DNA of 64,000 bases from Candidatus Flemingiibacterium sp. (GTDB lineage: Bacteria; Bacillota; Clostridia; Oscillospirales; CAG-272), in the NCBI GenBank assembly GCA_045589075.1, contig JAZNFI010000053.1, positions 173 to 64,172 on the forward strand, given 5' to 3'. The translations under genes were made by a program, and so were the position numbers. This document shows positions 1 to 51,849 of this stretch, piece after piece. The notes beneath the pieces were generated by a model, which did not search any database, was not told the DNA's origin, and worked only from the letters and a program-made list of their open reading frames with translations. Position 1 is the first letter of the stretch, and the number at the start of each line of letters is the position of its first letter.

Positions 1-3000
1 GCCTATCCATCAGGTGCTTGTAGAAAAGTGCGTTTCCGGATGGAAGGAAATCGAATTTGAGGTAATGCGTGACGGTGCAGGCAACGTAATAACCATTTGC
101 TCTATGGAAAACGTTGACCCCGTAGGCGTTCACACCGGTGATTCCGTGGTTGTAGCTCCCGCCGTTACACTTTCCGATGACGAGTATCAGATGCTCCGTT
201 CTGCAGCTCTCGACATTATCGAGGAGCTTAAAATTGAGGGCGGCTGTAACTGTCAGTTCGCTCTTCACCCTGAAAGCAAGGAATATGCGGTTATCGAGGT
301 TAACCCCCGTGTTTCCCCTTCCTCTGCTCTGGCTTCCAAGGCTACGGGCTACCCAATAGCAAAGGTTGCGGCGAAAATTGCAATCGGTTACACTCTTCCC
401 GAAATTCTCAACGCGGTTACGGGCACTACCTATGCCTGCTTTGAGCCTACCATTGACTATATGGTTGTAAAATTCCCCAAGTGGCCCTTTGATAAGTTTG
501 TTTACGCAAAGCGTACACTTGGAACACAGATGAAAGCAACGGGCGAGGTTATGGCTATCGGTACTTCCTTCGAGCAGGCTATGATGAAGGCTGTACGCGG
601 TGTTGAGATTGGCATGAACTACCTTTCTCACAAGAAATACCGTGAGCTTACTGACGAGGATATAGCATCGAGACTTCACAACGTGGACGACGAGCGTCTT
701 TTTATCGTTTTTGAGGCACTTCGCCGCGGAACAACCATTGAGAAGATTCATGAAATCACTATGATTGACGAGTGGTTCCTTAACAAGCTTCTTAACCTTA
801 TCGCAATGGAGAGAAAGCTGACTGGGTGCAAGATTACCGAGGAGCTTTACAAGGAAGCAAAGGTTCTCGGCTTCCCCGACAAGCTTATTGAGGAGCTTTC
901 GGGCAAGGCGCTTCCCAAAGGAATGCACAAGAGCGCCGTTTACAAGGTAGTTGACACCTGCGCCGCAGAATTCTCCGCAAACACTCCCTATTTCTACTCC
1001 ACCTACGACGACGAAAACGAGGCTGCCGAGTTTATCGAGAAGAAGAAAGACCCAAGTAAGAAAACGGTTATCGTTTTCGGTTCGGGTCCTATACGAATCG
1101 GTCAGGGCATCGAGTTCGACTATGCTTCGGTACACTGTGTATGGTCACTTAAAAAGGCTGGCTACGATGTGGTTATCGTAAACAACAACCCCGAAACCGT
1201 TTCCACCGACTTCGACACCGCCGACAGACTTTACTTTGAGCCTCTTACCCCCGAGGATGTAATGAACATCATCGAAACTGAAAAGCCTTTCGGTGTAGTT
1301 GTGGCATTCGGCGGTCAGACGGCAATCAAGCTCACAAAATATATGAGCGAGCACGGCGTAAACATTCTCGGAACTTCTGCCGACTCCATTGACGCGGCAG
1401 AGGACAGAGAGCGTTTTGACGCACTGCTTGAAGAAAACAAGGTGGCACGTCCCCAGGGCTACACCGTAATGACTACCGAGGAAGCCCTCACTGTGGCAAG
1501 CCGCATCGGCTACCCCGTTCTTATGCGTCCCTCATACGTTCTTGGCGGTCAGAACATGATTATTGCATTTACAGAGGACGACATCAAGGAATATATGAAG
1601 ATAATCCTTGCAAACAACATCGAAAACCCGGTGCTTATCGACAAGTACCTTATGGGTATAGAGCTTGAGGTTGACGCTATCTGTGACGGTGATGATATTC
1701 TCATTCCCGGCATTATGGAGCACGTTGAAAGAACGGGTATCCATTCCGGCGACTCCATTGCGGTTTATCCTGCATGGAATATTACGGACAAGCTTCGTGA
1801 GGAGATTATCCGGTGCACCAAAAATCTGTCTGTATCCCTTAAGATAATGGGTCTTGTAAATATCCAGTATCTTATCTATCAGAACAAACTCTATGTTATC
1901 GAGGTTAACCCCCGTTCTTCGAGAACTATCCCCTATATAAGCAAGGTTACGGGTGTTCCCATGGTTGACCTTGCAACCCGTTGTATGCTCGGCGAAAGGC
2001 TCGCTGATATGGGCTACGGTACGGGTCTTTACAAAACTTCCCCCTACGTTGCTATCAAGGTTCCCGTATTCTCTTTTGAAAAGCTTATGAACGTTGACAA
2101 CCACCTTGGTCCCGAAATGAAGTCCACCGGTGAGGTTCTCGGACTTGCAAGCACCCGTGAGGAGGCACTTTACAAGGGTCTCGTTGCGGCAGGCTACAAG
2201 CTTAAGAAGCAAGGCGGTATATTCATTACCGTCCGCGACTCCGACAAGTCTGAAATCGGCGAAACTGCAAAGAAGTTCTACGACCTTGGCTTCGAGCTTT
2301 ACGCAACACGCGGAACTGCAAAGATTATCGAGGACTACGGCATGAAGGTGAAGATTGTAGACAAGATTCACGAGGGCGACAACAACACCCTGAAGCTTAT
2401 TGAATCGGGCAGAATCGACTACGTTATCTCCACCTCTGCAAAGGGTCGTATTCCTACCCGCGACAGCGTTAAGATTCGCCGCAAGACGGTTGAGCGTGCT
2501 ATTCCCTGTCTTACTTCCATTGACACGGCAAACGCTATTGCTGACTGCCTAAAGAGCCGTTATTCACAGCACTCCACCGAGCTTGTGAACATCAACGATA
2601 TGCGTACCACCAAAGCTGCACTGAAGTTCACCAAGATGGAGGGCTGCGGCAACGACTATATCTACTTCAACTGCTTCGACCAGCGTATCGACAATCCCGA
2701 AGGACTTGCTATAAGACTCTCCGACCGTCATTTCGGCATTGGCGGCGACGGCGTAGTGCTTATCTGTCCCTCTGATGTTGCAGATGTTAAGATGCGTATG
2801 TTCAATCTTGACGGAAGCGAAGGAAGAATGTGCGGCAACGCTACAAGATGCGTGGCTAAATATATCGTGGACAACAAGATGGTTGACAAAGAGACCGTTA
2901 CCGTTGAAACCCTCAGCGGTATCCGCTCGGCAGATGTTACCAAGGTAAGCGGCGAGGTAAAGACTGTTACCGTTAACATGGGTAAAGCAGAGCTTAACCC

Positions 3001-3466
3001 CTCACTTATCCCCGTGAAGATGTCACTGCGCAACGTAATCGGCGTTCCTGCGCAGATTGCAGGCGGACGCTACCGTATCACCTGCGTTTCCATGGGCAAC
3101 CCACACTGTGTAGTTTTCGACGAGGACTTTGATGATACTCTTGACAATCTCGACCTTGAAACAATCGGTCCAAAGTTTGAAAACGACCAGCTTTTCCCTG
3201 AACGCACCAATACCGAGTTTATAAAGGTACTGAATCCCACAACTCTCAAGATGCGTGTATGGGAGCGTGGCTCGGGTGAGACCTTCGCTTGCGGAAGCGG
3301 TGCTTGTGCGGCAGTTGTAGCAGCGGTTGAAAACGGTTTGTGTCAGAAGAACACCGATATTACGGTGAAGCTCCGCGGCGGTGATTTGATTATCCGCTAT
3401 ACTGACGAGGCAGTATTCTTAAGCGGAGATGCGAATAAGATCTATGAAGGAACTATTATAATGTAA
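1..3466 (+). CDS. carB: Carbamoyl-phosphate synthase large subunit (5' end cut by window) continuing in frame, with no stop codon, into a diaminopimelate epimerase domain
   Basis: The frame of ORF 14..3466 stays open back to base 2. The translation shows both CarB ATP-grasp halves ([32 protein letters not shown]; [33 protein letters not shown]) and the MGS-like tail ([12 protein letters not shown]...YVISTSAKG). It then reads through into DapF sequence. Confidence 0.9.
2600..3466 (+). other. dapF: DapF (diaminopimelate epimerase)-homologous segment of the fused ORF
   Basis: From in-frame ATG 2600 the translation reads [23 protein letters not shown]...[18 protein letters not shown]...[10 protein letters not shown]...[17 protein letters not shown]. 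This is a full-length DapF-like fold with both Cys-containing motifs. No Shine-Dalgarno is seen before ATG 2600 or ATG 2636. Confidence 0.85.
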
Positions 3467-3532: not shown

Positions 3533-3566
3533 AAAAATCCGACCCAAAAGTACGGGTCGGATTTTT
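3533..3566. terminator. Bidirectional rho-independent terminator between convergent carB-dapF and the ABC operon
   Basis: aaaaatccgaccc / aaaagtac / gggtcggattttt. This is a GC stem flanked by an A-run on one side and a T-run on the other. Confidence 0.7.
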
Positions 3567-3574
3567 TGTACCTA

Positions 3575-4600
3575 TTAACCAACGATACCGGAACGCTCAA
3601 TGCCACCGATAAGGTATCTCTGAAGGAAGACATACATTATAAGCAGAGGAGCAAGAATGAGGATACCGCAGGTGTTCTTGATCGCGGATTCATATAGATT
3701 CTGAGCCGCATATTGTGTATCCAAGGTTTTTGGTATGGCAATAATATCCGGCATCATAACCATCTTGGCCTTTGTAAAGAATACAGTGGTGTAGAAGTTA
3801 TCAGTCCACTGCCAAGAGAAGGCGAACAAGAAGATTGTAATCATCATAGGAACGGAAAGCGGGAGAATGATCGTAAGGAATGTTCTGAAAACTCCGCTTC
3901 CGTCGATGTAAGCAGATTCTTCAAGCTCATCAGGAACTCCACGGAAGAACTGACGCATCATAAAGATGTAAAGTCCGTTCTTAAACGCCAAGCCGCCTAA
4001 TGAAAGCAGAGCCAACGGCCAGTAGGAGTTATTAAGGTTCAGGGCTTCACCCATCAGAAGTTCAAATATTCCAAACACATCGAAAAATCTGAACTTCATG
4101 AACATAGAGAGTTGGAGAGTTCTGTGAGGAACTATCATTGTAAAGATAACAAGGAAGAATACCAGCTTGTTGCCCTTGAACTTGAACTTTGCAAGACCGT
4201 AACCGATTACGCAGCACATAAAGGTCTGAATGAGACCGCACAGCACCGAAAGCGTAAACGTGTTGAACAATGCTTCAATGTAACTGTTCTCGCTTATGAT
4301 AGCTCTGTAGGTGTCAAGTGTGGGGTACTTCGGAATGAGTTTTACCGTTACGTCTACAAAATCCTCGCGGCTCATAAAAGAACCGGAAATCTTTGCGAAG
4401 AACGGGAAAAGAATTACATATGAAATACCGATAAGAAGGACGAGTCTGAATATCTTGAAGACTACATTCGTGAGGAAGTTCAAGGTCAGATACCTAGACT
4501 TGAGACGCTCAAGCAGAGGTGTTCTTTCAAACTCAACTCTTATTTTGTTTTTGCTCTCCTTCATGATACGGGGAGCTTTTGGTGCCTGTTGAGAATTCAT
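3575..4600 (-). CDS. Carbohydrate ABC transporter permease (MalG/CUT1-type), distal pair
   Basis: EAA loop EESAYIDGSGVFRTFLTIILPLSVPMM and multiple hydrophobic helices. There is a ~45-aa Lys/Arg-rich N-terminal extension. The gap to the upstream permease gene is 12 nt. Confidence 0.85.
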   Translation of the reverse strand: MNSQQAPKAPRIMKESKNKIRVEFERTPLLERLKSRYLTLNFLTNVVFKIFRLVLLIGISYVILFPFFAKISGSFMSREDFVDVTVKLIPKYPTLDTYRAIISENSYIEALFNTFTLSVLCGLIQTFMCCVIGYGLAKFKFKGNKLVFFLVIFTMIVPHRTLQLSMFMKFRFFDVFGIFELLMGEALNLNNSYWPLALLSLGGLAFKNGLYIFMMRQFFRGVPDELEESAYIDGSGVFRTFLTIILPLSVPMMITIFLFAFSWQWTDNFYTTVFFTKAKMVMMPDIIAIPKTLDTQYAAQNLYESAIKNTCGILILAPLLIMYVFLQRYLIGGIERSGIVG

Positions 4601-4612
4601 TTTCTTACCTCC

Positions 4613-5572
4613 TTAATCGCGTTTCTGATAGAAGACATACGAGCTTAGAATCAGTGCCACCAAACCGATGATAAGAAGAACGATGAGGAAGTATATCCAA
4701 GCCATCGCCGAACTGAGAACATTACCGCCCGTTTGCTTGTACACGGTGGAGATGTAGGTCATAACCTGATTCGACTGCGACGTAAAAGAGTCGATTACGG
4801 TATATATCGCATTTACCAGAATCATCGGGCTTATCATCGGGAAGGTGATCTTCCAGAAGGTTTCCCAAGCGGTTGCACCGTCTATATCACAGGATTCGTA
4901 AATCGCGGGGGAGATAGACTGGAGACCTGCAAGGAAAATAAGCATCTGAACACCGGAACGGTTGATAATGTCGTAAATGTTGTTAACCATATTTACAACA
5001 TACTCAACAAGCTCTGTACCGACCTTCATGTTTTCAAACAATCGTTCGATGTCCACCGCCGACAGTATTTCGGAGGTGGTGTTTTGACCTGAACCGTCGT
5101 TAATACCGGACTCGGTATCGCCCATGTAATCAAGCATGGTGTTTGACTGGTCGATACTGTCTACAATACCGGTAGAAATAATTACCGGGATGAAGAATAT
5201 CGCACGGAACGCCGCACGGCCCATCATCTTCTGATTGAGAAGCACTGCCATGAAAAGTGAGAAAATTACGATAGCCGGAATATCAAATATAAGCTGCTGG
5301 ATACCGGATGTCAGTGTCTGAACAAAACCGGGATCTACAAAGAGAGCACTCTGATAGTTTTCCAAGCCAACGAACTCAAGGGTAAAACCGGCACCCTGTC
5401 CGATCTTAACCTTGTTAAAGCTGAACCGAATTGAGTCAATTACTATCGGAAGATAAATTATAATAAAGCTTAATACAAAGGGAGCGACAAATACATATCC
5501 CGAACGAGCTTTACGAGCGTCCAGAGAGGCTCCGCGCTTGCGTTTTTTAGATGCGCTAACTGTGTTATTCAT
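4613..5572 (-). CDS. Sugar ABC transporter permease (MalF/CUT1-type), distal pair
   Basis: EAA loop YESCDIDGATAWETFWKITFPMISPMI. Basic N-terminus followed by a TM helix. The gap to the upstream gene is 16 nt. Confidence 0.85.
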   Translation of the reverse strand: MNNTVSASKKRKRGASLDARKARSGYVFVAPFVLSFIIIYLPIVIDSIRFSFNKVKIGQGAGFTLEFVGLENYQSALFVDPGFVQTLTSGIQQLIFDIPAIVIFSLFMAVLLNQKMMGRAAFRAIFFIPVIISTGIVDSIDQSNTMLDYMGDTESGINDGSGQNTTSEILSAVDIERLFENMKVGTELVEYVVNMVNNIYDIINRSGVQMLIFLAGLQSISPAIYESCDIDGATAWETFWKITFPMISPMILVNAIYTVIDSFTSQSNQVMTYISTVYKQTGGNVLSSAMAWIYFLIVLLIIGLVALILSSYVFYQKRD

Positions 5573-5588
5573 TTATACCTCTCCTTTC

Positions 5589-8500
5589 TTATTTAACTCG
5601 AGCGAACTCAAGTGCTCCGACTGTATAGGTTTTACCATCGTCAACTACAGTAATGTCAAAGTTATTATAGTTAAGGATGAATGCTTTATTCCCTTCGTAT
5701 GTAACCTTAACGATTCTTCCGTCGTCAGAGGTGTACTTAGTATAAACGTAAGCATTCGGGTCCACCTTATCGGTATTGAAATCGCTGGCCTCGCCATTTC
5801 CGGCGTAAGAAACTGCGTCCCTACCGTAGGTTGCCACAAGGCGTTCTATAAGGAGAGCCGCCTTTTCATCCTTTTGTGCTAATATCTCTTCCTCCAGCGC
5901 GGAAGCAAGTGCAGCCTCTTCTGCTGCTATTTTGTCTGCTTCAATCTCCTCCTCGGAAGGAATACGCTCACCGATAAGGAACTCGTGGTCAACTATCTGC
6001 TTATCCTGAAGATCTGCAAGAATCTCATTGAGTGTTGTGTAAAGCTCCACAAGCTCATCATACCAGATGTCAAACCCCACAGAGTAGTACTTGCTGTACT
6101 GCTTATCTTCCTTAAGAAGCGAAGTATTCTGTGCTGAAAGAGTGAAATACATGGATGAACCGTTCTCTATTGCCTTGAGAAGCTCATATTGTGTGTCACC
6201 CGCCATGTTAATAGCACCGCCGGAGAAGTTTACGCATCCGTGAAGTACCATACCCATGAAAGGTACCGCCTCGCCGGCATTGGAGTAACGGCTGGAATCG
6301 AGCGGTACACCGATAATATGCTCTGCATACTGAGCTGCGTACATATTACCGCCTTCAATCATAACGCTTTCGTAGTTTTCCTCAAGAGAAGCAAGCGCAT
6401 CCATTGTAAACTCCTTGGAATCCTCGCGGTTGTAAGGATCTTTCTTGTCGAAATCGGAGTTAAGATCTGTGCCCAGTGTGGATACTGAAACACCTATAGG
6501 AGCGAGCTTGGAATAATCCGCATTAAAGCCCTCAAGAAGATATTCATATACGGAAGGTGATACTGCCAGTGCGTGACCACGCTCGAAGGATTGGAGTGTG
6601 GAATCGTAGTAACGCTTGGTGGTGTAACGGTTATCCATAGTCTTTACAAGATGCTTCTTGTTGGAGATACCGTCAAATGAACCAAACCCTGCGATATTTG
6701 CAAAATCGAAGTCGGGATACACTCCAATGTCATTTTCGGAAGCATAGCTTACAAAATCGGTAAAGCCGTCGTTGCCGCCAACCGCTTTTTCAAATTCCAC
6801 ATTGTATGGAGCAGTTGCGGTCATTCCTCCGTTTGTATAACCTGTAAGCTTGAAGTTAACATTTGTTATGTTCGCCTCATCCAGCTTCTCGTACATTGTA
6901 CGAAGATCATCAAAGGAAGTAAGTGGCTTCAGTACCTTAACAGGAACAGAGAGAATTTTCTCCATTGTCTCCATAGCACCGAAGGTCTCAATATAGAGAG
7001 GAATTGAATCGCCGGCGTCTTCAATCTGAGTAAGACTTCCCTTTTTGATTAGGTAGTCTCTGTAAGCCTTCGCCATGCCTACATAACTGTCTTCGTAATA
7101 GTCATCAATACCTGCCGCCTCGGCTGACTCATCAGAGGTCAGCATAATGTACTTGATACGGTAGCTTCCGGTGTATTTGCGTTCGGAGACTACTGTATAT
7201 TTAGCATTTGAACCAACTGAAATGGACTCTGCAAGATTGTAAGTGTCCTTAGGTCTTGGATAGAATGTGGTGTAAACCGTGTTGTACTTATGGAGAGCTC
7301 CGCCGTGCTCGGTACTGATTTCGGCAAGTGAGTCACCCTCTTCAATTATTGCCAAAAAGCCGCTGGACTGTTTGCCCTCGGGCATTTTAGGAGCAACCTC
7401 ACCAGCTTCGATCTGCGCCTCGGTAAGCTTCGTAGGATTCCAGCTGTTGGACTCAACAATTCCGTAGACCGGCATCCTCATTATTTCCCTGTTCTGTCCA
7501 CTGACCTCTTGATAAGCATAGTCCTGACCGTAGATCTTACCGGTGATGGTAATCTGCTTGTTTTTCACATCCTCGAAACGTACCAGTGCGCCGGAACCGT
7601 CGGGTATAAAGGTGTAACCCTCCCATTCGGAAGAACCTGCACCAAACCAAGGAAGCAAACTGATGTACGTAAGCTGATACGAGCTTTCGTCAAAACGAAT
7701 ACCGTTAGCAGGGAGACGTACGTCGAGATTTCCATCTTCATCGAGAGTGTACTCAAGAGAAAGTCTGAAGAGAACAGGTACAACGTCGGTACCCTCATAA
7801 CCTGTGATGAGATGATCCTCTTCAAGCATTTCGTACGTATACTCGGGGCAGTACGTCTTTATAATATCTTCGATCATATTAAGGTCACGTTCAGACGCAT
7901 AGGGGTCGAAGGTGTAGATTGCCATTTGCTCACATATGGGGAATGAAGCAATAAGCTCACCTCTCAAACGCTCGGTCAGCGAGGGAGCGTTCGGATCCTG
8001 CAAGGTGTAGTACGCGTTCAAACGGTTTCTGGCTGTACCTTCGGGAACGTTCGCGAGAATAAGCTCCTCAAAACGCTCCTTTTTGATCTGCTTGGGAACC
8101 AGCTTACGGGTCTCCACACGACCCATAGTATACTCCACACGCACACCGTTCTTGATTTTCTTTACGTTGATCTGACCTCTCTGACAAGCCTCAATAAAGC
8201 TGAACATTTCGATCTCGGATGAGTTGTCAGAGTACTTGATAACGATCTGGGAAAGCAGTTCCTCTTTTACCGATTTAGCGGAGGAGGTGCTTGCCACATC
8301 ATATGGATTCGAGAAGAGAATCTGACCGGTTTTAGTATTAACATAGGCGACCTCTCCGGAAATAGGCTCAACATACAGCTCCATACCTGCCTTTGAGAGG
8401 TATTTTGTCATTGTTGCAAGCTTATCCTCGGGAGTTTTAAATTCCTGTGTCAGATAATCTATAGTTGTAAGTCCGGTTTCTGGATCGATACCGGGTACAA

Positions 8501-8609
8501 TTGCCGCATCCGCAGCCGCATTAGATGCACTTACGGGAAGCACTGCTGAGAACATTCCAAAAACCGTTGCAACAGTCAGGAATGCCGATAATAATCTGAA
8601 TTTTTTCAT
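5589..8609 (-). CDS. Secreted ~1000-aa protein of unknown function (reminds me of DUF5696-type proteins; unverified)
   Basis: N-terminal signal MKKFRLLSAFLTVATVFGMFSAVLPVSA/SN with no lipobox Cys. SD TAGGAG lies upstream. I see no catalytic motif I can name. An acidic helical stretch (EEEIEADKIAAEEAALASALEEE) lies near the C-terminus. The gene is embedded in the ABC operon. Confidence 0.8.
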   Translation of the reverse strand: MKKFRLLSAFLTVATVFGMFSAVLPVSASNAAADAAIVPGIDPETGLTTIDYLTQEFKTPEDKLATMTKYLSKAGMELYVEPISGEVAYVNTKTGQILFSNPYDVASTSSAKSVKEELLSQIVIKYSDNSSEIEMFSFIEACQRGQINVKKIKNGVRVEYTMGRVETRKLVPKQIKKERFEELILANVPEGTARNRLNAYYTLQDPNAPSLTERLRGELIASFPICEQMAIYTFDPYASERDLNMIEDIIKTYCPEYTYEMLEEDHLITGYEGTDVVPVLFRLSLEYTLDEDGNLDVRLPANGIRFDESSYQLTYISLLPWFGAGSSEWEGYTFIPDGSGALVRFEDVKNKQITITGKIYGQDYAYQEVSGQNREIMRMPVYGIVESNSWNPTKLTEAQIEAGEVAPKMPEGKQSSGFLAIIEEGDSLAEISTEHGGALHKYNTVYTTFYPRPKDTYNLAESISVGSNAKYTVVSERKYTGSYRIKYIMLTSDESAEAAGIDDYYEDSYVGMAKAYRDYLIKKGSLTQIEDAGDSIPLYIETFGAMETMEKILSVPVKVLKPLTSFDDLRTMYEKLDEANITNVNFKLTGYTNGGMTATAPYNVEFEKAVGGNDGFTDFVSYASENDIGVYPDFDFANIAGFGSFDGISNKKHLVKTMDNRYTTKRYYDSTLQSFERGHALAVSPSVYEYLLEGFNADYSKLAPIGVSVSTLGTDLNSDFDKKDPYNREDSKEFTMDALASLEENYESVMIEGGNMYAAQYAEHIIGVPLDSSRYSNAGEAVPFMGMVLHGCVNFSGGAINMAGDTQYELLKAIENGSSMYFTLSAQNTSLLKEDKQYSKYYSVGFDIWYDELVELYTTLNEILADLQDKQIVDHEFLIGERIPSEEEIEADKIAAEEAALASALEEEILAQKDEKAALLIERLVATYGRDAVSYAGNGEASDFNTDKVDPNAYVYTKYTSDDGRIVKVTYEGNKAFILNYNNFDITVVDDGKTYTVGALEFARVK

Positions 8610-8632
8610 TTACTATAACTCCTATCCTGTAA

Positions 8633-10759
8633 TTACAAACGGTACGAAATTTCGGTGATTATGCTGGAAATAAAGCTTACTATCTTAGAAAGCAGCGTAG
8701 AGAAAAGTACACCGATAAACATGATTATCGCCATACCGAGTATGGTACCAACGGAAGTAAGAATGTTCTTCGAGAAGCCGTAATCGTGAGTAACCATCGA
8801 GCCGAAGAAGATAAGTAGTCCTGCCCAGATGAACGCGAAAGAAACGAGAAGATTGATGATGGTCGCCTCTGAAGCTATCGAGAAGTTAGAAATGATAACT
8901 GAAGGAATGATAAGAATGGGCAGAGGAACAAGTGCGTAGCTGGTAGCAACGAAAATGTCCTTGAGGCTGCCTTCACCGTCGAACAGCGTGGTGAGACACC
9001 AGTTAGCTATGGTCCAAAGAAGCAGCGGAACCACAACAGCTATTATCTGTACGAATATGGTGGAGGACTGCTGACGTGGATCAAAAATGTAACCGGTTCC
9101 CACATCCTGATAGTAGAATGCAAGCACAGTAAGCGCAATCCATACTAAGGAAGCTCTTACCGAGCCGCGCTGCTCATGCTTAAGGTCCCAGAATCCGTCA
9201 AAAGGATGTACTACCAGATGCTGGGCATACATAAGCTCCTCCCAGAACGTCTTTCTGCCCTTTTTAAGCTGGGTTTTCTTGTTGAGCTTTGTAGCATACT
9301 TGTTGAAGAGGACGAAAAGCACCACAAGAACGATAACCGTGATAGGAATGAGCAGAATCCAATCCGAGATCCATGCTTTTCTTATCTCTTTGAAAGACTC
9401 TGAATAATTATCGGTATCGTAGGCTGCCTTGTAATACTCAAGAGACTCCTCATATTCCGCATTTCTGTAAAGACTCTTACCAATGCCTATATAGGCAGTG
9501 TCGAAGTTGTTGTTTCTCTTAAGAATCTCGGTCCAGAAGTCAACGGTCTTATCATAGTTGCGCTCATTGGTATTTTTGATGGCATCAATAAGCAGATCAC
9601 CGTATTCGGTCCGTCTGAATACCGTAATACTGTCAGCGTTTTTGTCAAGAACGAGAATATCATTCTCAAGGTAAGCAATCGCCTCAACAGACAGAATGTT
9701 ACCAAGCTGCTGACCCATGTCGCCAAATACGAAGAGAAGGTTTCCGTCTTCATCGTATGTGAAGATCTTGGAACGCTTTTCGTCGATTATCGACCATGTT
9801 CCCTCCGGGCCTACAGCCGCATCGATAATCTTGGAAGCGCCGGTGATCTTAGCGGTGGAGAGGTTTGTTACATTAACCTCACCGCCGGGATTAAAGAATC
9901 CATTGCGCTTCATAATATCGGCACCAGCCGTATTGAGCTTCTTCACAGGCGAATATTCGCTGTTCTTACTCTTAATAGAAGCCTGCTGTGAGCTTTCGGG
10001 AATGGAAGATGTTGTTACATAAAGGAATCCGTTTTCATCAATTGTTATATTGTTGAACTCGGTGGAAACGTACTGCTGAGAAAGTGCTCTCTGCTCGTCA
10101 GTCTGGAAACGTCTCCAAAGAATGTCAAGAGCGTCTACAGTTACCTTCTGAGCACCGATAAAGCCCTGGAACACACCGTCCTCATTGATAGCTATAACAC
10201 CCATGTAGGTGGTAGATGATACTACAAAAATACGACCGTAAGCATCAACTGCTATTGCAACCGGTTTATAGATGGAGCCGGCGGGGAAAACGTCTGCATC
10301 CGGTTCTTCAATGGTCTTATAGTAAGTACCGTCAAGCTGACACATTACAATACGGTTGTTGTCGGTATCGGCAATGTAGATGTACTCATCGGTAACAAAC
10401 ACACCGGACGGAGCCTTAAGACTATCCGGAACTCCGTTCATGTTGATGAATTCGCCAATTGTAAACTTAAGCTTGTAGTATCTGTCAAGAACTACGATTC
10501 TGTTGTTCGCCGCGTCTGCTATGTAAACATTTTTGTTAGCATCCACAACAAGGTCACGCGGGTCGTCAATAGGAGTATCGAGTCCCATATACTGGGAGTC
10601 AACCTTTCTGTCCGGCACGTAAGCATCGGGAGACATAAGAGCGTAACCATCTATAGAGTACGTGTAGGTTGCATAGGGTGTTATTGCTCCGAGTGGGAGA
10701 CAGCCGAGCATAAGCAAAATGCTGGCCGCAAGGGTAAATATTTTAGAGATTTTTTTCAT
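8633..10759 (-). CDS. Exported six-bladed NHL-like beta-propeller fused to a TPR-like segment and a C-terminal Yip1-type polytopic membrane domain
   Basis: Signal-like N-terminus. Blades include NVYIADAANNRIVVLD, YIYIADTDNNRIVMCQ, GRIFVVSS, GFLYVTTSS, KIFTYDEDGNLLFVFG and DILVLDKNADSITVFRR. A TM helix (ILLIPITVIVLVVLFVLF) is followed by HPFDGFWDLKHEQRGS and about five more TM helices. SD AAGGAGGG lies upstream. Confidence 0.8.
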   Translation of the reverse strand: MKKISKIFTLAASILLMLGCLPLGAITPYATYTYSIDGYALMSPDAYVPDRKVDSQYMGLDTPIDDPRDLVVDANKNVYIADAANNRIVVLDRYYKLKFTIGEFINMNGVPDSLKAPSGVFVTDEYIYIADTDNNRIVMCQLDGTYYKTIEEPDADVFPAGSIYKPVAIAVDAYGRIFVVSSTTYMGVIAINEDGVFQGFIGAQKVTVDALDILWRRFQTDEQRALSQQYVSTEFNNITIDENGFLYVTTSSIPESSQQASIKSKNSEYSPVKKLNTAGADIMKRNGFFNPGGEVNVTNLSTAKITGASKIIDAAVGPEGTWSIIDEKRSKIFTYDEDGNLLFVFGDMGQQLGNILSVEAIAYLENDILVLDKNADSITVFRRTEYGDLLIDAIKNTNERNYDKTVDFWTEILKRNNNFDTAYIGIGKSLYRNAEYEESLEYYKAAYDTDNYSESFKEIRKAWISDWILLIPITVIVLVVLFVLFNKYATKLNKKTQLKKGRKTFWEELMYAQHLVVHPFDGFWDLKHEQRGSVRASLVWIALTVLAFYYQDVGTGYIFDPRQQSSTIFVQIIAVVVPLLLWTIANWCLTTLFDGEGSLKDIFVATSYALVPLPILIIPSVIISNFSIASEATIINLLVSFAFIWAGLLIFFGSMVTHDYGFSKNILTSVGTILGMAIIMFIGVLFSTLLSKIVSFISSIITEISYRL

Positions 10760-10770
10760 TTTTACCCTCC

Positions 10771-11643
10771 TTAGTCCTTCATACCCGACGAACCCATGGT
10801 TTCGATGATGTTACTCTGCGTTATAATAAATACAGAAATCGGCACAGCCATCATGACAACCTGGGAAGCCGCTGCAGCACCCGCACGGGCAATACCGCCG
10901 GATACAATCTGGTTAATAGCGTAGTTAAATGTCTTTAACTGTTCTGAATAAATATAGATTGAGTTACCTGCATTCCACAGTCCCTGGAACGAGTAGATTA
11001 TAAGTGTAAGCCACGCAGGCTTAACCATCGGCATCGCGATTTTTAAGAATGTGTAGAACTCGGAAGCACCGTCAAGACGCGCTGATTCAAGAACTGCATC
11101 GGATACCGCAGTCTCCATGAACTGCTTCATGAGGTACAAGCCAAGGGATGTACACCAAGCGGGAACAATTATCGCAAGATATGTATCAACCCAGCCAAGT
11201 GTACTCATGGTAAGGAAGTTAGCGATACCTGTAACGGTAGAGTTAAACATAAGAGAAAGTACGATAACTTCAAATATCCATCTGCGGCCGGGGAATTTAA
11301 TCTTAGCAAGAGCGTATGCCGCAAGCGAGGAAAGAAGAAGGTTTCCTGCTGTACCTGAAACAGATATGAATACCGTATTGAATATGTATCTTGAGAAAGG
11401 AACCCAAGAGGTGCCCATGAGCTTAAACAAGTCTGTAAAGTTCTTGAGCGTGGGGCTCATAACGTAGAAACGAGGTGGAAACATCCACAGCTCATCAAGA
11501 GGCTTCAGTGACTGCATGATAACGTAAAGCATCGGCAGGAACATGAATGCGCCCAAAAGGATGAGCATTATATTAATTCCTATGTCGCCTCCAACCGAAC
11601 GGTTGAGGACAACTTTATGTTTTCTGGTTCTTAATCTTGCCAT
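10771..11643 (-). CDS. Carbohydrate ABC transporter permease (MalG/CUT1-type), proximal pair
   Basis: EAA loop LESARLDGASEFYTFLKIAMPMVKPAW. The gap to the upstream permease gene is 1 nt. Confidence 0.85.
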   Translation of the reverse strand: MARLRTRKHKVVLNRSVGGDIGINIMLILLGAFMFLPMLYVIMQSLKPLDELWMFPPRFYVMSPTLKNFTDLFKLMGTSWVPFSRYIFNTVFISVSGTAGNLLLSSLAAYALAKIKFPGRRWIFEVIVLSLMFNSTVTGIANFLTMSTLGWVDTYLAIIVPAWCTSLGLYLMKQFMETAVSDAVLESARLDGASEFYTFLKIAMPMVKPAWLTLIIYSFQGLWNAGNSIYIYSEQLKTFNYAINQIVSGGIARAGAAAASQVVMMAVPISVFIITQSNIIETMGSSGMKD

Positions 11644-11644
11644 A

Positions 11645-12601
11645 TTATTGTCCCACCTTCGATAAGAGTTTCTTGATAATCAGGTTGCATCCTACCATGA
11701 CCACAAAGAGTACAACCGCGATGGTAGAAGAATAACCAACCTCGACACGCTGTCCGCCGTAGTCCTCAAGGTGATGCATGGTGGTGTGCGCCGCATAGTC
11801 AACCGACGGGAAGCCTGCAAGTGCCGTAACTACCGCACCAAATCCGAATGAACCTGTAATTGCCATAACCGCACCGAACATAAGCTGGGGCTTCATTGTC
11901 GGCAGAGTTATGTACCAAAGCTCCTGCCATCTGTTCTTAACGCCGTCAACAGCACCTGCCTCATAGAGAGACTTGTCGATTGTCTGGAGACCTGCGATGA
12001 ACGAAAGAAAGGAGGTTCCGAGTGAGGTCCAAAGAGCAACTACAATACAGAGTCCCATAACGTAGCTTGCATCCTGGAACCAAAGAATCGGGCTTCGGAT
12101 AAGGCCGAACTCCATGAGCCAAGCGTTTACATAGCCATAGGAGTCGCCGGAGAAAAGCACGCTCCAGATAAGGTAAACCGAACCGGCGATGGAGGGCGCG
12201 TAGAAGATAAGTGTTACTACCGCACGAACCTTGGGTCCAAGCTCGTTGATAAACCATGCAACGAGAAGGGATATAACATAGGATGCGGGGCCTGTTATAG
12301 ACGCAAACACGAGAGTGTTCTGCGCCGCAGTTATAAATATGTCATCATCCAGGAACAATCTGATATAGTTGTCGAGGAAAACGAAGGTAGGAAATTCGAG
12401 AAGGTTGAATTCCGTTAAACTCAGTATAATCGAAAGGACGACCGGGAACACGGTGAAGACCGTAAAGAGAATCATAAAAGGTGCGATCATAAAATACGCA
12501 GTTTTATTACGGGCTATCTCTTTAAGAGTCCACTGGAATTTGGTCATGTCCTTACGGGAAGTCGGCTTTGGCTGATTGGCAGCCGCTGCGTTCTGTGACA
12601 T
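11645..12601 (-). CDS. Sugar ABC transporter permease (MalF/CUT1-type), proximal pair
   Basis: EAA loop YEAGAVDGVKNRWQELWYITLPTMKPQL. SD AAGGAGAG lies 6 nt before the ATG at 12601. Confidence 0.85.
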   Translation of the reverse strand: MSQNAAAANQPKPTSRKDMTKFQWTLKEIARNKTAYFMIAPFMILFTVFTVFPVVLSIILSLTEFNLLEFPTFVFLDNYIRLFLDDDIFITAAQNTLVFASITGPASYVISLLVAWFINELGPKVRAVVTLIFYAPSIAGSVYLIWSVLFSGDSYGYVNAWLMEFGLIRSPILWFQDASYVMGLCIVVALWTSLGTSFLSFIAGLQTIDKSLYEAGAVDGVKNRWQELWYITLPTMKPQLMFGAVMAITGSFGFGAVVTALAGFPSVDYAAHTTMHHLEDYGGQRVEVGYSSTIAVVLFVVMVGCNLIIKKLLSKVGQ

Positions 12602-12638
12602 GATGTTCTCTCCTTTACAGATAAGTTGATTCTTCTCC

Positions 12639-12673
12639 CTTATTCTCCTCTGCCGTCAGCAGAGGAGAATAAG
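12639..12673 (-). promoter_or_regulatory. Perfect 15-bp-stem intercistronic hairpin between the SBP gene and the first permease gene
   Basis: cttattctcctctgc / cgtca / gcagaggagaataag. No U-tract follows on the minus strand, so this looks more like an mRNA-stabilising or attenuating hairpin than a full terminator. Confidence 0.6.
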
Positions 12674-12695
12674 AAACAAATTGTTTTTCCGCGGT

Positions 12696-15686
12696 TTAGT
12701 TCTGCGCTGCTATCGCCTCTTCGATGCTCTGGCCAAGCTCAAGTGTAGGAAGATCGAATTCCTGACGTTTTCTGGTGATTTCCTTGTTAATGTCGTCAAT
12801 ATAGCTGAGCATTTCTTCAACAGGATCCGAATTATTATTGTATGCATCAAGGAATGCAAATCCAACATAACGCGCAATAATATATCCGCCGGGCATTTCG
12901 GGGATTATTGCCAGATTGTTGTACTGTGCAAGGATATTTTCAAGATCTGTTGTAGACCACGGCAGGGATTCAAGAGCTTCCTTGTTAGCGGTAGCGTACA
13001 TCGCGCCCTGACCTACGATAGCAACCATTTCGTTAGCGTAATGTGACTGTGTTTCTGCTGTGGTGTACCAATCCATGAATCTCCAAGCATTTTCACGTTT
13101 ATCACATCCATTCATCATTACCATAGCTGTTACCGTGGAAATAGCGGTGTTATTGATATTGCCTTCCTCGTCCTCCATACCTATAATCGGTACGAACTCC
13201 CAAAGATCGCGTATTTCCGTTGCGAATATTGAAAGCTGATTGTACATGGATACGTAGTCGGAGAAGATAATAGGCATCTCACCTGTTCTGAAGCGGTTAG
13301 CCGGATCAAAGGTAACAGGGAAAGAATACTGAGTAAAGTAAGAACAGAGTTTGTCAAATGCCTCAAGTGATGTGTTGGTATCAAGATTTATCTTGGAGCC
13401 GTACCAATTACGGTTGGAGCCGTCGCCGTAAGCTTCGCTGTTAGGATCGTCGTACTCCTTGCCGTCGTACAGATCCTCGCCCATCTGATAGAGGAAGAGC
13501 TGAAGTCCGGGATAGTTTGACGGGACACCAACCTGCATGTTGTTATACTGAAGAACGGGAATTGCCTCCATAAGATCGTCCCATGTCCTTGGAATCTCGA
13601 TTCCCAGTTCTGCAAGTATGTCCTTGCGATAGAACATCATCGAGAAGGACTGGGTCTCGGGAAGACCGTAGGTTGAACCGTAAAGCGACAGCGGAACTAT
13701 TGCAGCCTCGGAGAACCTGGAGGTTACCTCCTCAAATGTATCAAATTCGTTGAGAGGCTGGACCGCATTACGAATAGCATACTGAACAGGAGTGCTCTGC
13801 GCCTGCTCCATCGCTACATCGGGACCGGTTCCGGAAAGGGTCGCGGGAAGGAGCGTACCGCTTACAACAAGTCGGAGATTTACTCCGATGTTGGTTGTGG
13901 AGGTAAAGTAGTTGTCGCACATTGCTCGAACTACCTGCGCCTGGTCGCGTCCTGTCTGTACCCAAACATCGATAACGTCCTCTTCAGCCAGCTCTACCGT
14001 AGCACCAAGATTGGAATAATCGGTGAAGAACGACATCACGAAGGAGCTTATTTCAAACCATAACGCTTCAAAGAAGTTCGCCTCAGCTCTGGGAAGTGCT
14101 GTTCCTGTGGGCTGAATGCAGATATAGTCGAATGAGAGCGGCTGACTTCTTACGCTGTTAAGCCATGTTCCAAGTGTACCGATGTAGCTCTTTAAGGTTC
14201 CGAGGTTATTTGCAACCTCATCTTCGTCGGTAGCCATCTTCTTAAGGACACGAGCGATGTTGTCAAGAGTTGCCGTGTTGCTGCCCTTTTCACCGGTAAT
14301 CTCGGTGATGAGTTTCGAAACCTCATCAAGGACAAGATACTGTTTATACATATCCCTGATGGTATCCGGAATGAGTCCGTTAAAGTTGTAGTCACGGTAT
14401 TCGTCCGGGGTAGCGCCGGTTATCTGAAGAATTTTCAGATAGTCTCTGTTTATAGAGTCAAGCACGTTCTGTACACGACCGATTGTATCGCTCATGTTTC
14501 CGAGAACAACTTCAAACTCGATTGTATATTCCTTACCTTCTTCAAAGTAGAATTTAAACTCGGTTTCGCCGTTGCCAAGAGGTTTTGTTACCCATTCTTC
14601 TGTGAAATTAAACTGAAGATAATTAGCTTCCTCAAAGGGGATCTCACCGTTTATGTAAATGCGGCGAGAGGTATACATACCCGCAAGATCTGCCTGCTTG
14701 TAGCGAGGAACTATGTCATAAAAACCTGTCTTCTCGCACACAAAGGTATATCTTAGCCACTGACCGACACCTTGCCACTTTGTTCCGCCTATATAGTTAA
14801 GCTTGGAAAGCGAAGGGCTCTGGGGTTGTGTCAGAGCTGACGATCTGTCGTTGGCGGGATAGATGGTCTGATCTGATGTGGCGTCGGTAAACTCCGCCTG
14901 GAAGATGATGGGCTCTGCCCCTTCTGCCGAAGCGTCCCCGCACTTCTCGAGATATTCCTCATACGTCGGGAGATCCTCATACGGGAAAAGAGTTATGGAC
15001 TTTAAGATGAGTACCTCACGGCTCGCTTCAAGGGAAATGGTGTGTTCACCTTCCGTAAAGACAAACTCGTAAGGATGCACATTGTAACCGGTGGAATCTT
15101 CAAAAACGTAGGTTCTCCATTCGGGAGAAATGTACTTCATAGGTCTTACGTCATTGCCCTGAAGGTCTTGAACGAACGATTTTGAACCATCCTCATTAAT
15201 TACATAATCATCGCGCCACACTTTACCGATAGCAAGGTATCTCGCACCCTTAAACGGATACTCGCCGTCAACACGGAATTTCCTCTCGATGTCGGTGGAT
15301 TTACCGTCAGCCGGGAAGCTGTATTCAATCTTGATTGCGTATTTCGCATCGGCCGGGATTTCAACATCCCACGCCACAATGCCGGAATTGGGCATATATA
15401 AAGTCCCGTCCTCAACACGCACATCTGCGGTCGTAGCTTCTTTGTTGTAGTCAAGTGCATCAATCACAATAGACTCGGAAGCACGCTTAACGCCGGCATT
15501 TCTGTCGGCATATTCAGCGTACTCCTCGGCGTTTAGAAGGTCCTGAACGTCAGCAATATCGTAGCCAACGGTAGAAGAAGCCTTCTCCTCGGTTTCGCCG
15601 GTGTCAGCCGCTACGCTGAACGCGGAACCGAGTGTCACAAGTGATAAAAACAACGCAATTAACCTTGTTAACTTGGTTTTTTTCAT
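12696..15686 (-). CDS. Giant (997 aa) extracellular solute-binding protein: N-terminal ~550-aa extension with duplicated beta-sandwich-like modules plus a C-terminal family-1-type SBP domain
   Basis: I chose the start at ATG 15686 (MKKTKLTRLIALFLSLVTLGSAFSVAA/D), preceded by AGGAGG. The 48 codons further upstream in the ORF look non-coding. The C-terminal part is SBP-like (SFSMMFYRKDILAELGIEIPRTWDDLMEAIPVLQ). An internal repeat is visible: YAIKIEY..RKFRVDGEYPFKGARYL versus YDIVPRY..RRIYINGEIPFEEANYL. Confidence 0.85.
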   Translation of the reverse strand: MKKTKLTRLIALFLSLVTLGSAFSVAADTGETEEKASSTVGYDIADVQDLLNAEEYAEYADRNAGVKRASESIVIDALDYNKEATTADVRVEDGTLYMPNSGIVAWDVEIPADAKYAIKIEYSFPADGKSTDIERKFRVDGEYPFKGARYLAIGKVWRDDYVINEDGSKSFVQDLQGNDVRPMKYISPEWRTYVFEDSTGYNVHPYEFVFTEGEHTISLEASREVLILKSITLFPYEDLPTYEEYLEKCGDASAEGAEPIIFQAEFTDATSDQTIYPANDRSSALTQPQSPSLSKLNYIGGTKWQGVGQWLRYTFVCEKTGFYDIVPRYKQADLAGMYTSRRIYINGEIPFEEANYLQFNFTEEWVTKPLGNGETEFKFYFEEGKEYTIEFEVVLGNMSDTIGRVQNVLDSINRDYLKILQITGATPDEYRDYNFNGLIPDTIRDMYKQYLVLDEVSKLITEITGEKGSNTATLDNIARVLKKMATDEDEVANNLGTLKSYIGTLGTWLNSVRSQPLSFDYICIQPTGTALPRAEANFFEALWFEISSFVMSFFTDYSNLGATVELAEEDVIDVWVQTGRDQAQVVRAMCDNYFTSTTNIGVNLRLVVSGTLLPATLSGTGPDVAMEQAQSTPVQYAIRNAVQPLNEFDTFEEVTSRFSEAAIVPLSLYGSTYGLPETQSFSMMFYRKDILAELGIEIPRTWDDLMEAIPVLQYNNMQVGVPSNYPGLQLFLYQMGEDLYDGKEYDDPNSEAYGDGSNRNWYGSKINLDTNTSLEAFDKLCSYFTQYSFPVTFDPANRFRTGEMPIIFSDYVSMYNQLSIFATEIRDLWEFVPIIGMEDEEGNINNTAISTVTAMVMMNGCDKRENAWRFMDWYTTAETQSHYANEMVAIVGQGAMYATANKEALESLPWSTTDLENILAQYNNLAIIPEMPGGYIIARYVGFAFLDAYNNNSDPVEEMLSYIDDINKEITRKRQEFDLPTLELGQSIEEAIAAQN

Positions 15687-15896
15687 CAACATTTCCTCCT
15701 GCCAAGAATTACTTTGAAGGGTATAAATTTCTAAAACAGCCAAGCGGTCACGTTTTGTATCTCTGAAACGCCCATGGGTGTGGCAAAAGTCAAGGCGCCA
15801 ACGCAAAGTTATGCACAAAAAGTGTCGCAAAGCAGTGAAATAAGTCGGCGCACAACCACTTCAACATGGCAAGTCCGCCGATTTTTTCATACCTAT

Positions 15897-40469: not shown

Positions 40470-40544
40470 TGGTGACCCGTACGGGAATCGAACCCATGTT
40501 TCCGCCTTGAGAGGGCGGCGTCTTAGCCGCTTGACCAACAGGCC
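40470..40544 (-). tRNA. tRNA-Glu (anticodon CUC), 75 nt with encoded CCA
   Basis: Hand-folded cloverleaf: acceptor GGCCTGT/ACGGGTC (two G:U pairs), anticodon arm CCGCC-CTCTCAA-GGCGG, T arm ATGGG-TTCGATT-CCCGT, discriminator A, then CCA. Confidence 0.85.
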
Positions 40545-48642: not shown

Positions 48643-51600
48643 TTACTCATCGACGTCAGCCTTCCCTTTGCTGAGGAATACAACAACAACAACCGTAGCA
48701 GCTGCAATAACTATTCCACCAACTATCCAGTAATATAAAGCCGAATCTTTTACCTCGTCAGGCGAAAGTTTCTTCAGCCTTTCGTTTGCGATAGCCTCGG
48801 AAAGTGTATCATCGTTATGGTCGTATGACAAGCCCTCTACGCTTCTTATTGACAATTCCGCGCTGTATATTTTGGAATCACCCACAAGTATCTGTATGGT
48901 TTCGGTATTCTTTATATCTCCGAAGCTCTTAATATCAAAATAAACACTTGTCCATTCGCCTGTCTTAACGGAACCAACTGATTCAAAGCGTTCATTTTCT
49001 CCCACAAGCACCAGCTTTACAGGCACCGTTTCCACAGATATGGGGGTAACTGCATCAAGCTTCATGTTAACCTTAAGGATAGGCGTAAGCTTCATATTTT
49101 CTGTGTGACCAAATCTGTGGATTATACCGTACCATGAAGCATATCCTACATCTCCCCAGGCAGCACTGTCAAACAGTACCGTCATAGCGGTGCCGCCGTC
49201 ATTGGTTATACTGATGTTCTTCGCGTAGTATCCGTACCACATATCGCTGATTCCCGAAGCGCTCCCAAAATCAAAATAGGGGAACCTTCCCTTGATACCC
49301 GAGGGTTCATCGTACACGGCTTCCGACTCGGATATGCGTTTCCTCGGAAGCTTGTCGAAATCAAAGCCACTTATAATATCGGACAAATCGCCGGACTTAA
49401 GAGCAAGCTGCACCGCACTGAAAATGCTGTTGGACAATTCTGTGTCAATGTATTTTACGGTATCGGTGATAGCCGAAGCGTGGGAACTCACTTCAGCTAT
49501 ATAAGCGTCTACTCTTTCGTTGAAGTATGCAGAGCAATATCCCAGCACATATGACTGCATAAGGCTGCTGAGCCTCTTGCCCGTCATAGAGTAAACATCA
49601 TCACAAAAAATGAGGTTCTTACCTGAAGCACCGTTCTCATCAAGCAGCCCCAGAAGCTCTTCACAATCTGCAGCATCTGCATAATCCGCCGTTTCCCTGT
49701 CGCCATGTGTTACCTCAACGCAAAGCTCCCACGGGAAATCTCCGTATTTTCCGGCACAGTAAATTAACAGAGGAAGGTATTCAAAAAGCACATATTCGTT
49801 CTCTTTGCTTATGGGATCGGTATCATACAGATCTGTAACCGAAACATATACCTTCGCTTGAGAATTTTTTGAAATGTAGCTTGCGTATATGGAATACAGT
49901 TGTCCTGCGGTGCGTAGAGCCTGCTCTTTTATAGAAATACCGTTCTCTGCGACACGGTTTTCACCGTCTCCCAAAATAACGCCAACAACACTTCCGCCCG
50001 TCGCCCACCTTCCTGCGGTGTATTCGGCAATGGCACCCAAGTAGTCCACACCGTCCTCAAGCTCGGATACGCGCTGGTTCAAGACATAGTCGTCGGATGC
50101 ATACATAGAGGTAAGTTCATTCTCACAAACGGTATCTAGCCCCGTAAAGCGAAGCACGACTTTTATCCCCGAATCCGAAAGCATTCTGATTTTCTTATCA
50201 ACAGACTCCATATAAGCCGACCTCGGATAATAGAGACATCCCCCGTATATATACGGCTCGCTGTCGCTTTTGGCACCAAATGCAGATCTTATATTGAAGT
50301 CCAACACAGTGACCTTGCAGTCGCTGTCACACACAACCGATAGGTCATCGCATGACATTCCCTTTGCGCCTTTTTCAAAAGTACCGACTCCAAAGGCGCC
50401 GATGCTTTGATTGCTTGCACAGAACGGAGAGTCTATCAAGGAATATGTACCGTCACCATGAAGAATGACCGCCAAATAACGGCTGCAGCGCGAAGCAGGG
50501 TCGTTTTTCGCCAGATTTGCTATAAGTTCAAACCTTGTAGTCATTTCGCCTTCAACAACAGGAGTAAGCAAGGCAAGCTCATCCGGCTCGGGAAGCACAT
50601 CTGAGTTCCATTTGAATACAGCTATGCGGCTGTCACGGTATGAAATCGCCGCATTACGGTTGATCTCGCCCACAATGCAGAGAGATTCCGCTCCATACCC
50701 AAGCTCACAGGAGGTTATCTTGCCGAAAAAAGCTGTTTTTTCGGGTTCGTATCTGTAAACGGGACTCACTGATATGAGCTTTATCTCACCCTTACCGTCC
50801 CCAAAAAGAAGCTCTATGCTGTGAAGCATTGAAGCATCGCCGATAGGCAGGTAGTAATATTGTCCCGACGAATTGGGCTCTATTGGAACGGTCACACTCT
50901 TGTCTTCGCTTATTGCCTGGGAATCAAAGGTTGTATAGTGCAGAATCATCTGGGAGCTGCCCGTATTATTTTCAAGGTGGACACGCAGGCAATTAACGGG
51001 ATATGGCAGCTCGGACATAACCACCGCCGCTTGAAGCAAAACAGGCTCGGACACCTCAGAGGTCATGACAATAGCAGACTTCCCGCGCTCAACCTCAGCC
51101 TTTGCTCCTGCAACGGTAAATGTATCAAACAGGAATCTGTCCACCATTTCTCGGTCAACAATTTCCGCAGCGCGAACAGAGTCGATATAAAATCCATGAT
51201 GAGTGATGTTTTGAACAGAGGTATCAACAAGCAAAGCTATCTCAGCCTCGACAATGGCTCTCCTTCCGTCAAAGGAACCAATATCGGCAGAAATACTGCA
51301 CCATTCCCCGGCTGCTGCAGTGCCGAGGTTATAGCTTGAAGTACCGTCCTCGCTGACAAGGTTGAGACGCACATAATACAGTGCGTTATCATCGTGTTCA
51401 TAGTGGGGCACATATATGTCATATTCAAAGCTTCTGTATTCGGTAAGATCAATGGGCTCATCAAAGCTTATCTTGGTAGATCTCATAATATTCGGATACC
51501 TGTAAGCACATTCCACAAAAAGGCACGTGCGCTCAGCGTACGTTCCCTCATCGCCAAAATTTGCGGTAATGATACGCACACCGTCTGCGTTGGAGCCCCC

Positions 51601-51741: not shown

Positions 51742-51849
51742 ATACTCTCCACCTCCGGCAAATTTTGATAGTATCATTAATATTATAGCATATATTCACG
51801 ATAAATGAAATAGTTTTTCAGAAAATTAATATAAATTTTCGATTCACTA

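Follow-up and report, generated by a model that had tools for sequence, protein, structure and literature searches.

Carbamoyl phosphate synthetase (CPS) large subunit and diaminopimelate epimerase are encoded by a single open reading frame (ORF) in a 64,000-nucleotide stretch of DNA from Candidatus Flemingiibacterium sp. (GenBank assembly GCA_045589075.1, contig JAZNFI010000053.1; hereafter, the window). Positions 2-3466 encode the C-terminal ~870 residues of CarB joined directly to a complete DapF. Based on comparisons with related sequences, we consider it likely that the gene product is a single chain of ~150 kDa (~1350 aa) with both CPS large-subunit and diaminopimelate epimerase activity. 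The fusion is old and is found widely among Ruminococcus and Oscillospirales-type Clostridia; sequence databases already contain it, but it is uncharacterized.

The fused reading frame and its two halves

The original prediction, made from the letters of the window, was that carB is open into dapF without a stop codon. This was exact, and the peptide quoted at the time matches the translation: a single plus-strand frame (window 2-3466, 1154 codons) is uninterrupted until the TAA at 3464-3466. Between positions 2400 and 2800, the carB frame contains no stop codons, whereas the other two plus-strand frames contain 7 and 5. The left edge of the window cuts the fused ORF, and CarB residues ~1-200 fall outside the window, which has a GC content of 46%. 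The fused gene has the following features (coordinates, strand, description, and basis):

2..2614, plus strand: CarB portion of the fused ORF (NF003671, TIGR01369, Pfam domains, alignment with E. coli CarB)
2600..2638, plus strand: fusion junction, MRTTK/AALKFTKM, with no stop codon and no Shine-Dalgarno (SD)-like run (translation, codon scan)
2615..3466, plus strand: DapF portion, including the TAA at 3464-3466 (TIGR00652, PF01678, 2otn match)
2831..2833, plus strand: first DapF catalytic Cys, TGC (alignment with the SCGNGLRC motif of solved DapF; codon checked)
3290..3292, plus strand: second DapF catalytic Cys, TGC (alignment with motifs of solved DapF; codon checked)

Within NCBIfam, the CarB part of the window protein matched NF003671 (1154.7 bits vs. 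a cut-off of 599; aa 1-854 align to profile positions 200-1050 of 1058) and TIGR01369 (1124.9 bits vs. a cut-off of 1027), and both CarB equivalog cut-offs were passed despite the ~200 N-terminal residues missing from the window. Pfam identified CPSase_L_D2, D3, D1, and MGS in this part; the window takes in the final portion of the first ATP-grasp half, then D3 and D1, and lastly the second ATP-grasp half and MGS. As far as it is covered by the window, this series matches that of stand-alone CarB (E. coli, PDB 1JDB/1BXR), which has ATP-grasp halves, an oligomerization domain, and an MGS-like allosteric domain, and the CarB tail of the fused protein (...ELVxINxMRxEK) matches the E. coli C-terminus; however, the fused chain runs on past the allosteric domain straight into a second enzyme. 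For alignments around the junction, residues were numbered on a 415-aa query that comprises the last CarB domain and DapF (window 2219-3463). E. coli CarB 947-1056 aligned to query residues 3-113.

The DapF part matched TIGR00652 with 286.1 bits vs. a cut-off of 114.65 (NCBIfam), with aa 875-1153 of the window protein aligned to profile positions 2-269 of 270, and Pfam identified PF01678 (DAP_epimerase) in two stretches. Bacillus anthracis DapF (2otn) aligned to query residues 132-411 with E = 3e-78. Both DapF catalytic cysteines, which we take to be Cys73 and Cys217 in H. influenzae numbering, are present in the window, one within MCGN (2831-2833) and the other within ACGSGA (3290-3292). The fused DapF shares with stand-alone DapF (PDB 2OTN, 1BWZ, and 9MRO) the two repeats, both Cys motifs, and coverage from residue 1-2; in addition, it has 54-56% identity to the unfused DapF relatives P0131 and P0135. 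Judged by these profile matches and alignments, neither the CarB half nor the DapF half stands apart from the ordinary members of its family.

Other proteins also join DapF to a second function. The NCBIfam profile for the bifunctional DapF/glutamate racemase of Chlamydia (NF038284) gave 99.8 bits for the window protein, below its cut-off of 350; whereas DapF has a second function in both cases, the Chlamydia enzyme is a single domain with two activities. In P0214, an N-terminal DapF precedes the M and C domains of a Mur ligase, a fusion partner from the same cell-wall pathway. Among other DapF architectures, P0127 has an N-terminus that resembles a fragment of ornithine carbamoyltransferase, joined to the MGS/DapF part, and P0162, P0227, and P0232 have ~400 unannotated residues ahead of DapF. 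Some of these five architectures may be chimeric assemblies.

The fusion in related genomes

We used the 415-aa query in a protein-cluster search; among the matches listed, this analysis identified >120 protein clusters with 60-85% identity and ~100% query coverage, all with both PF02142 (MGS) and PF01678. These clusters come from Ruminococcus bicirculans, Ruminococcus spp., and metagenome-assembled genomes (MAGs) of Ruminococcaceae, Oscillospiraceae, and Clostridia. We also scanned GTDB, with one genome per species, using a 146-aa junction profile, and at least 573 of 600 pattern matches encode relatives. The species-level locus counts given throughout (n = 80) refer to the best 80 of these at least 573 relatives.

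In 80/80 of these species loci, the junction was spanned in frame (query residues 1-146) with 72-88% identity. All loci uncut by a contig end have a stop-to-stop ORF of 1298-1372 aa, which corresponds to a full CarB plus a full DapF, and full-length fused ORFs were found in >60 GTDB loci. Cultured isolates with the fusion include Ruminococcus albus KH2T6, Ruminococcus sp. FC2018, 210702-SL.1.03, LCP21S3_E8, and Ruminococcaceae bacterium AM07-15; MAGs with the fusion among the best 80 loci include Ca. Flemingiibacterium, Oscillospiraceae, and Acutalibacteraceae. The sequences closest to the window are from Candidatus Flemingiibacterium MAGs, with ~80% nucleotide identity over the gene. A HMMER scan that covered 1.84 billion 50%-identity representatives identified a full-length fused representative of 1349 aa with 59% identity (P0123) and further fused representatives down to ~43% identity, with the junction length unchanged.

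The original prediction left two explanations for the missing stop codon, namely a genuine fusion that arose by stop-codon loss and a single-base error. Under the second explanation, the carB stop was lost, or the frame was shifted, by a sequencing or assembly error in this assembly only, and CarB and DapF are really separate proteins. What speaks for an error is a prior expectation only, that carB and dapF are normally separate genes, together with a long-read contig (L001) that has frameshift noise elsewhere in carA and carB. However, the junction is fused even in this noisy contig, an in-frame junction of identical length occurs in 80/80 species-level genomes and in >120 protein clusters, and the junction codons vary synonymously around a conserved amino acid. 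Because the same junction is found in independent species genomes, including isolates, we rejected a private assembly error, the probability of which we regard as practically nil, and the comparison with the corresponding loci of relatives revealed no stop codon at the junction. The genuine fusion thus held up, whereas a recent loss of the stop codon in this genome did not: the fusion is old and shared by many species.

The best 120 matches in the cluster search are all ≤726 aa long, although fusions of ~1350 aa exist (P0121, P0123, and the GTDB loci). One related locus (L002) is cut within carB by the edge of its contig, and the long-read contig L001 is ridden with frameshifts. We considered a truncated CarB half or systematic contig breaks as the cause of the short matches; full-length ORFs are present in >60 GTDB loci, and therefore the short matches are not biological, but are explained by the match list itself and by fragmentary contigs.

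The R. albus fused protein (1351 aa) is WP_074833736.1 in RefSeq, where it is named “carbamoyl-phosphate synthase large subunit,” and UniRef100_A0A1H7LKN7 in UniRef, where it is named “Multifunctional fusion protein.” Fragments in the databases are named either “diaminopimelate epimerase, partial” or “carbamoyl-phosphate synthase large subunit.” In a full-text literature search, which included reconstructions of amino-acid pathways, we found no paper that describes a CarB-DapF fusion. This agrees with the original remark of not being aware of a described fusion; databases are another matter, as the R. albus protein is in both RefSeq and UniRef.

Structure and conservation of the junction

Three sets of alignments locate the boundary between the two halves. 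The end of E. coli CarB (residue 1073) projects to approximately query residue 130, in the TTK of MRTTK. Solved DapF structures, from their residue 1-2, begin at query residues 133-136, as do unfused DapF representatives (270-300 aa, 50-56% identity). In the unfused representative P0131 (locus L085), the initiator Met aligns to the first Ala of AALKF in the window, and a clear purine-rich ribosome-binding site lies upstream. Based on these alignment ends, CarB is predicted to end at ~2614 and DapF to start at 2615, with a linker of 0-2 residues. The proposal that DapF begins about 8 residues after CarB was thus too generous in the distance.

The junction is identical in length, with zero indels, in the 81 sequences scanned. 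In the window, the DapF initiator position is a GCT Ala codon (2615), followed at 2621 by a CTG Leu codon. Leu at 2621-2623 is kept in 66/81 sequences, encoded by CTT (26), CTG (19), CTC (15), CTA, or TTA/TTG. Such synonymous codon change at a constant Leu is a signature of protein-level selection in this frame. Between the window and its two nearest relatives (L005/L006), dN/dS (Nei-Gojobori) was 0.048 over the final 400 codons of CarB and 0.06-0.08 over DapF, which places the sequence on both sides of the junction under purifying selection, although these values are rough, with dS at 1.1-2.0 and near saturation.

AF2 predicted the 415-aa construct with a mean pLDDT of 88.7, and both the MGS-like domain and DapF were confidently folded. 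The CarB tail (query 115-132) had block means of ~50-58 when modeled without the CPS synthetase domain, with residues 115-122 below 50; however, pLDDT of the tail rose to 73-85 once the preceding CPS synthetase domain was included. Based on this rise, the tail looks like an ordered part of CarB and not like a floppy linker.

Possible separate synthesis of DapF

Stand-alone DapF has its own translation start, and the unfused locus L085 has a clear SD motif and ATG; in contrast, the fused DapF in the window has neither its own start codon nor a ribosome-binding site, and the position of the initiator Met is Ala in the window and variable in fused relatives. Two ATG codons lie nearby. ATG 2600 encodes the Met of ...NINDMR, and ATG 2636 encodes the Met of FTKM; the original prediction saw no SD-like run ahead of either, and this holds in the window sequence. 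In 81 sequences, all codons from -18 through -5, counted from the Asn of GNDY, were checked under lenient criteria for the ability to start translation and for SD-like motifs. As a control, the same criterion detected an SD-like motif at 28/36 recognizable carB starts. Three positions were as follows:

Position -17 (ATG 2600 in the window): Met, as part of CarB, in 70/81 (...QEMH... in E. coli); SD-like motif upstream in 0/81
Position -12 (initiator of the closest unfused DapFs; GCT, Ala, in the window): Met in 20/81 and Gln, Glu, Ile, Val, or another residue in the rest; codon able to start translation in 22/81, together with an SD-like motif in 8/81
Position -5 (ATG 2636 in the window): Met, inside DapF, in 80/81; SD-like motif upstream in 1/81

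At no junction position was a start-capable codon combined with an SD-like motif in more than 8/81 sequences, and the combination is absent from the window. Internal initiation was therefore rejected, as codons -18 to -5 contain no conserved internal start or SD site among the 81 sequences and none in the window.

One ORF could also yield two proteins if DapF were freed by proteolytic cleavage instead of by initiation near the junction. In support of two proteins, Met occupies the initiator position of unfused DapF in 20 of the sequences, 8 of which also have the SD-like motif, and the CarB tail, with its low pLDDT when modeled without the CPS body, could be accessible to proteases. However, the window has Ala at the initiator position, and its two nearby ATGs encode conserved internal residues almost devoid of SD-like motifs upstream; a start at 2636 would remove the first beta-strand of DapF. 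The invariant length and strong residue conservation of the junction are unexpected for a cleavable spacer, and we know of no cleavage motif for it. Separate CarB and DapF proteins from this gene are, in our judgment, highly improbable.

Loss of catalytic cysteines in relatives

The first catalytic Cys of DapF is present in 71/81 sequences scanned and the second in 78/81. In ~10/80 species, the first Cys (MCGN) is replaced by Gly (L056, L061, L067, L070, and L082), Ser (L078, L080, L081, and L083), or Ala (L079); in L080 and L083, the second Cys is lost as well. P0017 shows this replacement too, as do the divergent fused representatives P0126, P0127, P0130, P0142, and P0180. In a rough neighbor-joining tree, the Cys-less sequences occupy at least 6 separate positions, and one Gly clade is sister to the clade of the window. 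The Cys-less DapF domains (located at about 6100-7030 of each locus) keep the exact junction, and pairs of them have DapF-domain dN/dS values of 0.044-0.087, in the same range as Cys-bearing pairs.

That the domain is under purifying selection after the loss of Cys hints at a non-catalytic role in those lineages, where CarB may carry it as a pseudo-enzyme domain. The pattern fits either a non-catalytic role in CPS or a Ddh bypass, with the domain kept for folding. It is not directly applicable to the window, where the Cys pair is intact; however, it is the most interesting lead from this analysis.

Extended to the window, the pattern would suggest that the DapF domain is mainly a non-catalytic module of CPS, which serves dimerization or, as an allosteric addition to the adjoining allosteric domain, the sensing of diaminopimelate or lysine, and that epimerase activity is secondary or dispensable. 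Several observations argue in this direction: the repeated replacement of the first Cys across the tree, with two species also losing the second; its recurrence in divergent fused proteins; the retention of the domain and exact junction afterward, with dN/dS of 0.04-0.09; and a junction of constant length, for which models that include the CPS domain predict an ordered structure. Nevertheless, the window keeps both Cys residues and the surrounding substrate-binding motifs, and its DapF scores far above the DapF equivalog cut-off. No second dapF was found in the 64-kb window or within the 12-kb related loci, and the window contains no second carB. The dN/dS values are rough, as dS is near saturation, and any effect on CPS is conjectural. 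We therefore consider a mainly non-catalytic DapF domain unlikely for the window protein.

In a related proposal, the DapF domain may have been recruited as a working part of CPS, a dimerizing or ligand-sensing module on the allosteric domain that would tie the supply of precursors for arginine and pyrimidines to the status of cell-wall or lysine precursors. Such recruitment would explain the invariant junction and the purifying selection even in Cys-less lineages; we regard it as conceivable but rather doubtful.

Gene neighborhood

The gene immediately before the fused gene is carA in 69 of the GTDB loci; on the basis of this arrangement, the fused gene appears to be part of the cell's ordinary CPS operon. 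Downstream of the fused gene in the window is a further feature:

3533..3566, no strand assigned: GC-rich hairpin with a 14-bp stem flanked by an A-run and a T-run (consensus scan; called on the minus strand, but the sequence is symmetric)

This hairpin (AAAAATCCGACCC...GGGTCGGATTTTT) is located between the fused gene and a convergent transporter gene (3575-4600), and it is probably a shared bidirectional terminator. Based on the hairpin and the convergent ABC-transporter genes downstream, the fused gene is predicted to be the last in its transcription unit in the window.

The nearest unfused dapF genes that could be placed (n = 2) are not beside carB. In L084, the gene order is asnB-dapF-aminotransferase, and in L085, it is ANTAR regulator-dapF-pyrG; no intermediate with adjacent, unfused carB and dapF was found in these two unfused loci. 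A class I/II aminotransferase gene (~400 aa) is directly 3′ of dapF in both L002 (1792-2997; R. bicirculans, fused) and L084 (6821-8023; unfused). It is possibly the LL-diaminopimelate aminotransferase DapL, and it is absent from that position in the window and in R. albus.

The minus strand from 3575 to 15830 contains two ABC permease gene pairs and encodes a DUF5696 protein of 1006 aa, a protein of 708 aa that combines NHL/beta-propeller with Yip1, and a solute-binding protein that is unusually large at 1044 aa. This cluster is probably a glycan-uptake locus that is unrelated to the fusion. The window contains two ORFs of 1044 aa (12696-15830 and 48643-51777), which are equal in length and unrelated to each other. 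The only tRNA gene in the window encodes tRNA-Glu(CTC) (40470-40544, minus strand).

Discussion

We propose that the whole protein is made as one chain from the carB start and that the fused gene closes a carA-carB::dapF operon. Its CarB part would pair with CarA and produce carbamoyl phosphate for arginine and pyrimidines, and its DapF part would epimerize LL-diaminopimelate to the meso form, which is used for lysine and peptidoglycan. The fusion probably has a single origin, in an ancestor shared by Ruminococcus and Oscillospirales-type Clostridia, and was retained from then on. In several species, DapF forms dimers, and the allosteric domains of CPS pair in the E. coli tetramer. A possible benefit of the fusion would be obligatory co-expression, or assistance by the DapF dimer in CPS assembly; alternatively, the fusion may be nearly neutral and hard to reverse. 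Substrate channeling is not expected because the two reactions share no intermediate.

Several points weigh against a single bifunctional enzyme. The two pathways lack a common intermediate, and a mechanistic reason to fuse the enzymes is not obvious. AF2 did not confidently predict the orientation of the domains relative to each other (pTM 0.67-0.68). The ~10/80 species that have lost a DapF catalytic Cys indicate that retention of the domain does not always depend on epimerase activity. Finally, the source genome may encode a second stand-alone dapF or a Ddh bypass outside the 64-kb window.

The nearest analogue in kind is eukaryotic CAD/Ura2, in which the CPSase is fused to dihydroorotase (DHOase) and aspartate transcarbamoylase (ATCase); in both systems, enzyme domains extend the CPSase chain at its C-terminus. 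However, the partners in CAD belong to the same pathway and use carbamoyl phosphate, whereas the fused DapF is from the unrelated lysine/peptidoglycan pathway. Unlike CAD, the CarB-DapF protein essentially lacks a linker, and CarA remains encoded by a separate gene. Neither Pfam nor NCBIfam identified an ATCase or DHOase domain in the window protein.

In a large group of bacteria that are abundant in gut and rumen, with R. albus and R. bicirculans among them, the one carB seen beside carA carries the cell's predicted diaminopimelate epimerase on the same chain. Protein names that reflect only one half of the fusion can cause pathway reconstructions to miss either dapF or carB, and the fusion changes the protein sizes to be expected in proteomics. 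The fused gene is also a natural test case for asking if joining two enzymes from unrelated pathways is neutral or has a function, and the repeated loss of catalytic Cys, with the domain kept, makes this question accessible to experiment.

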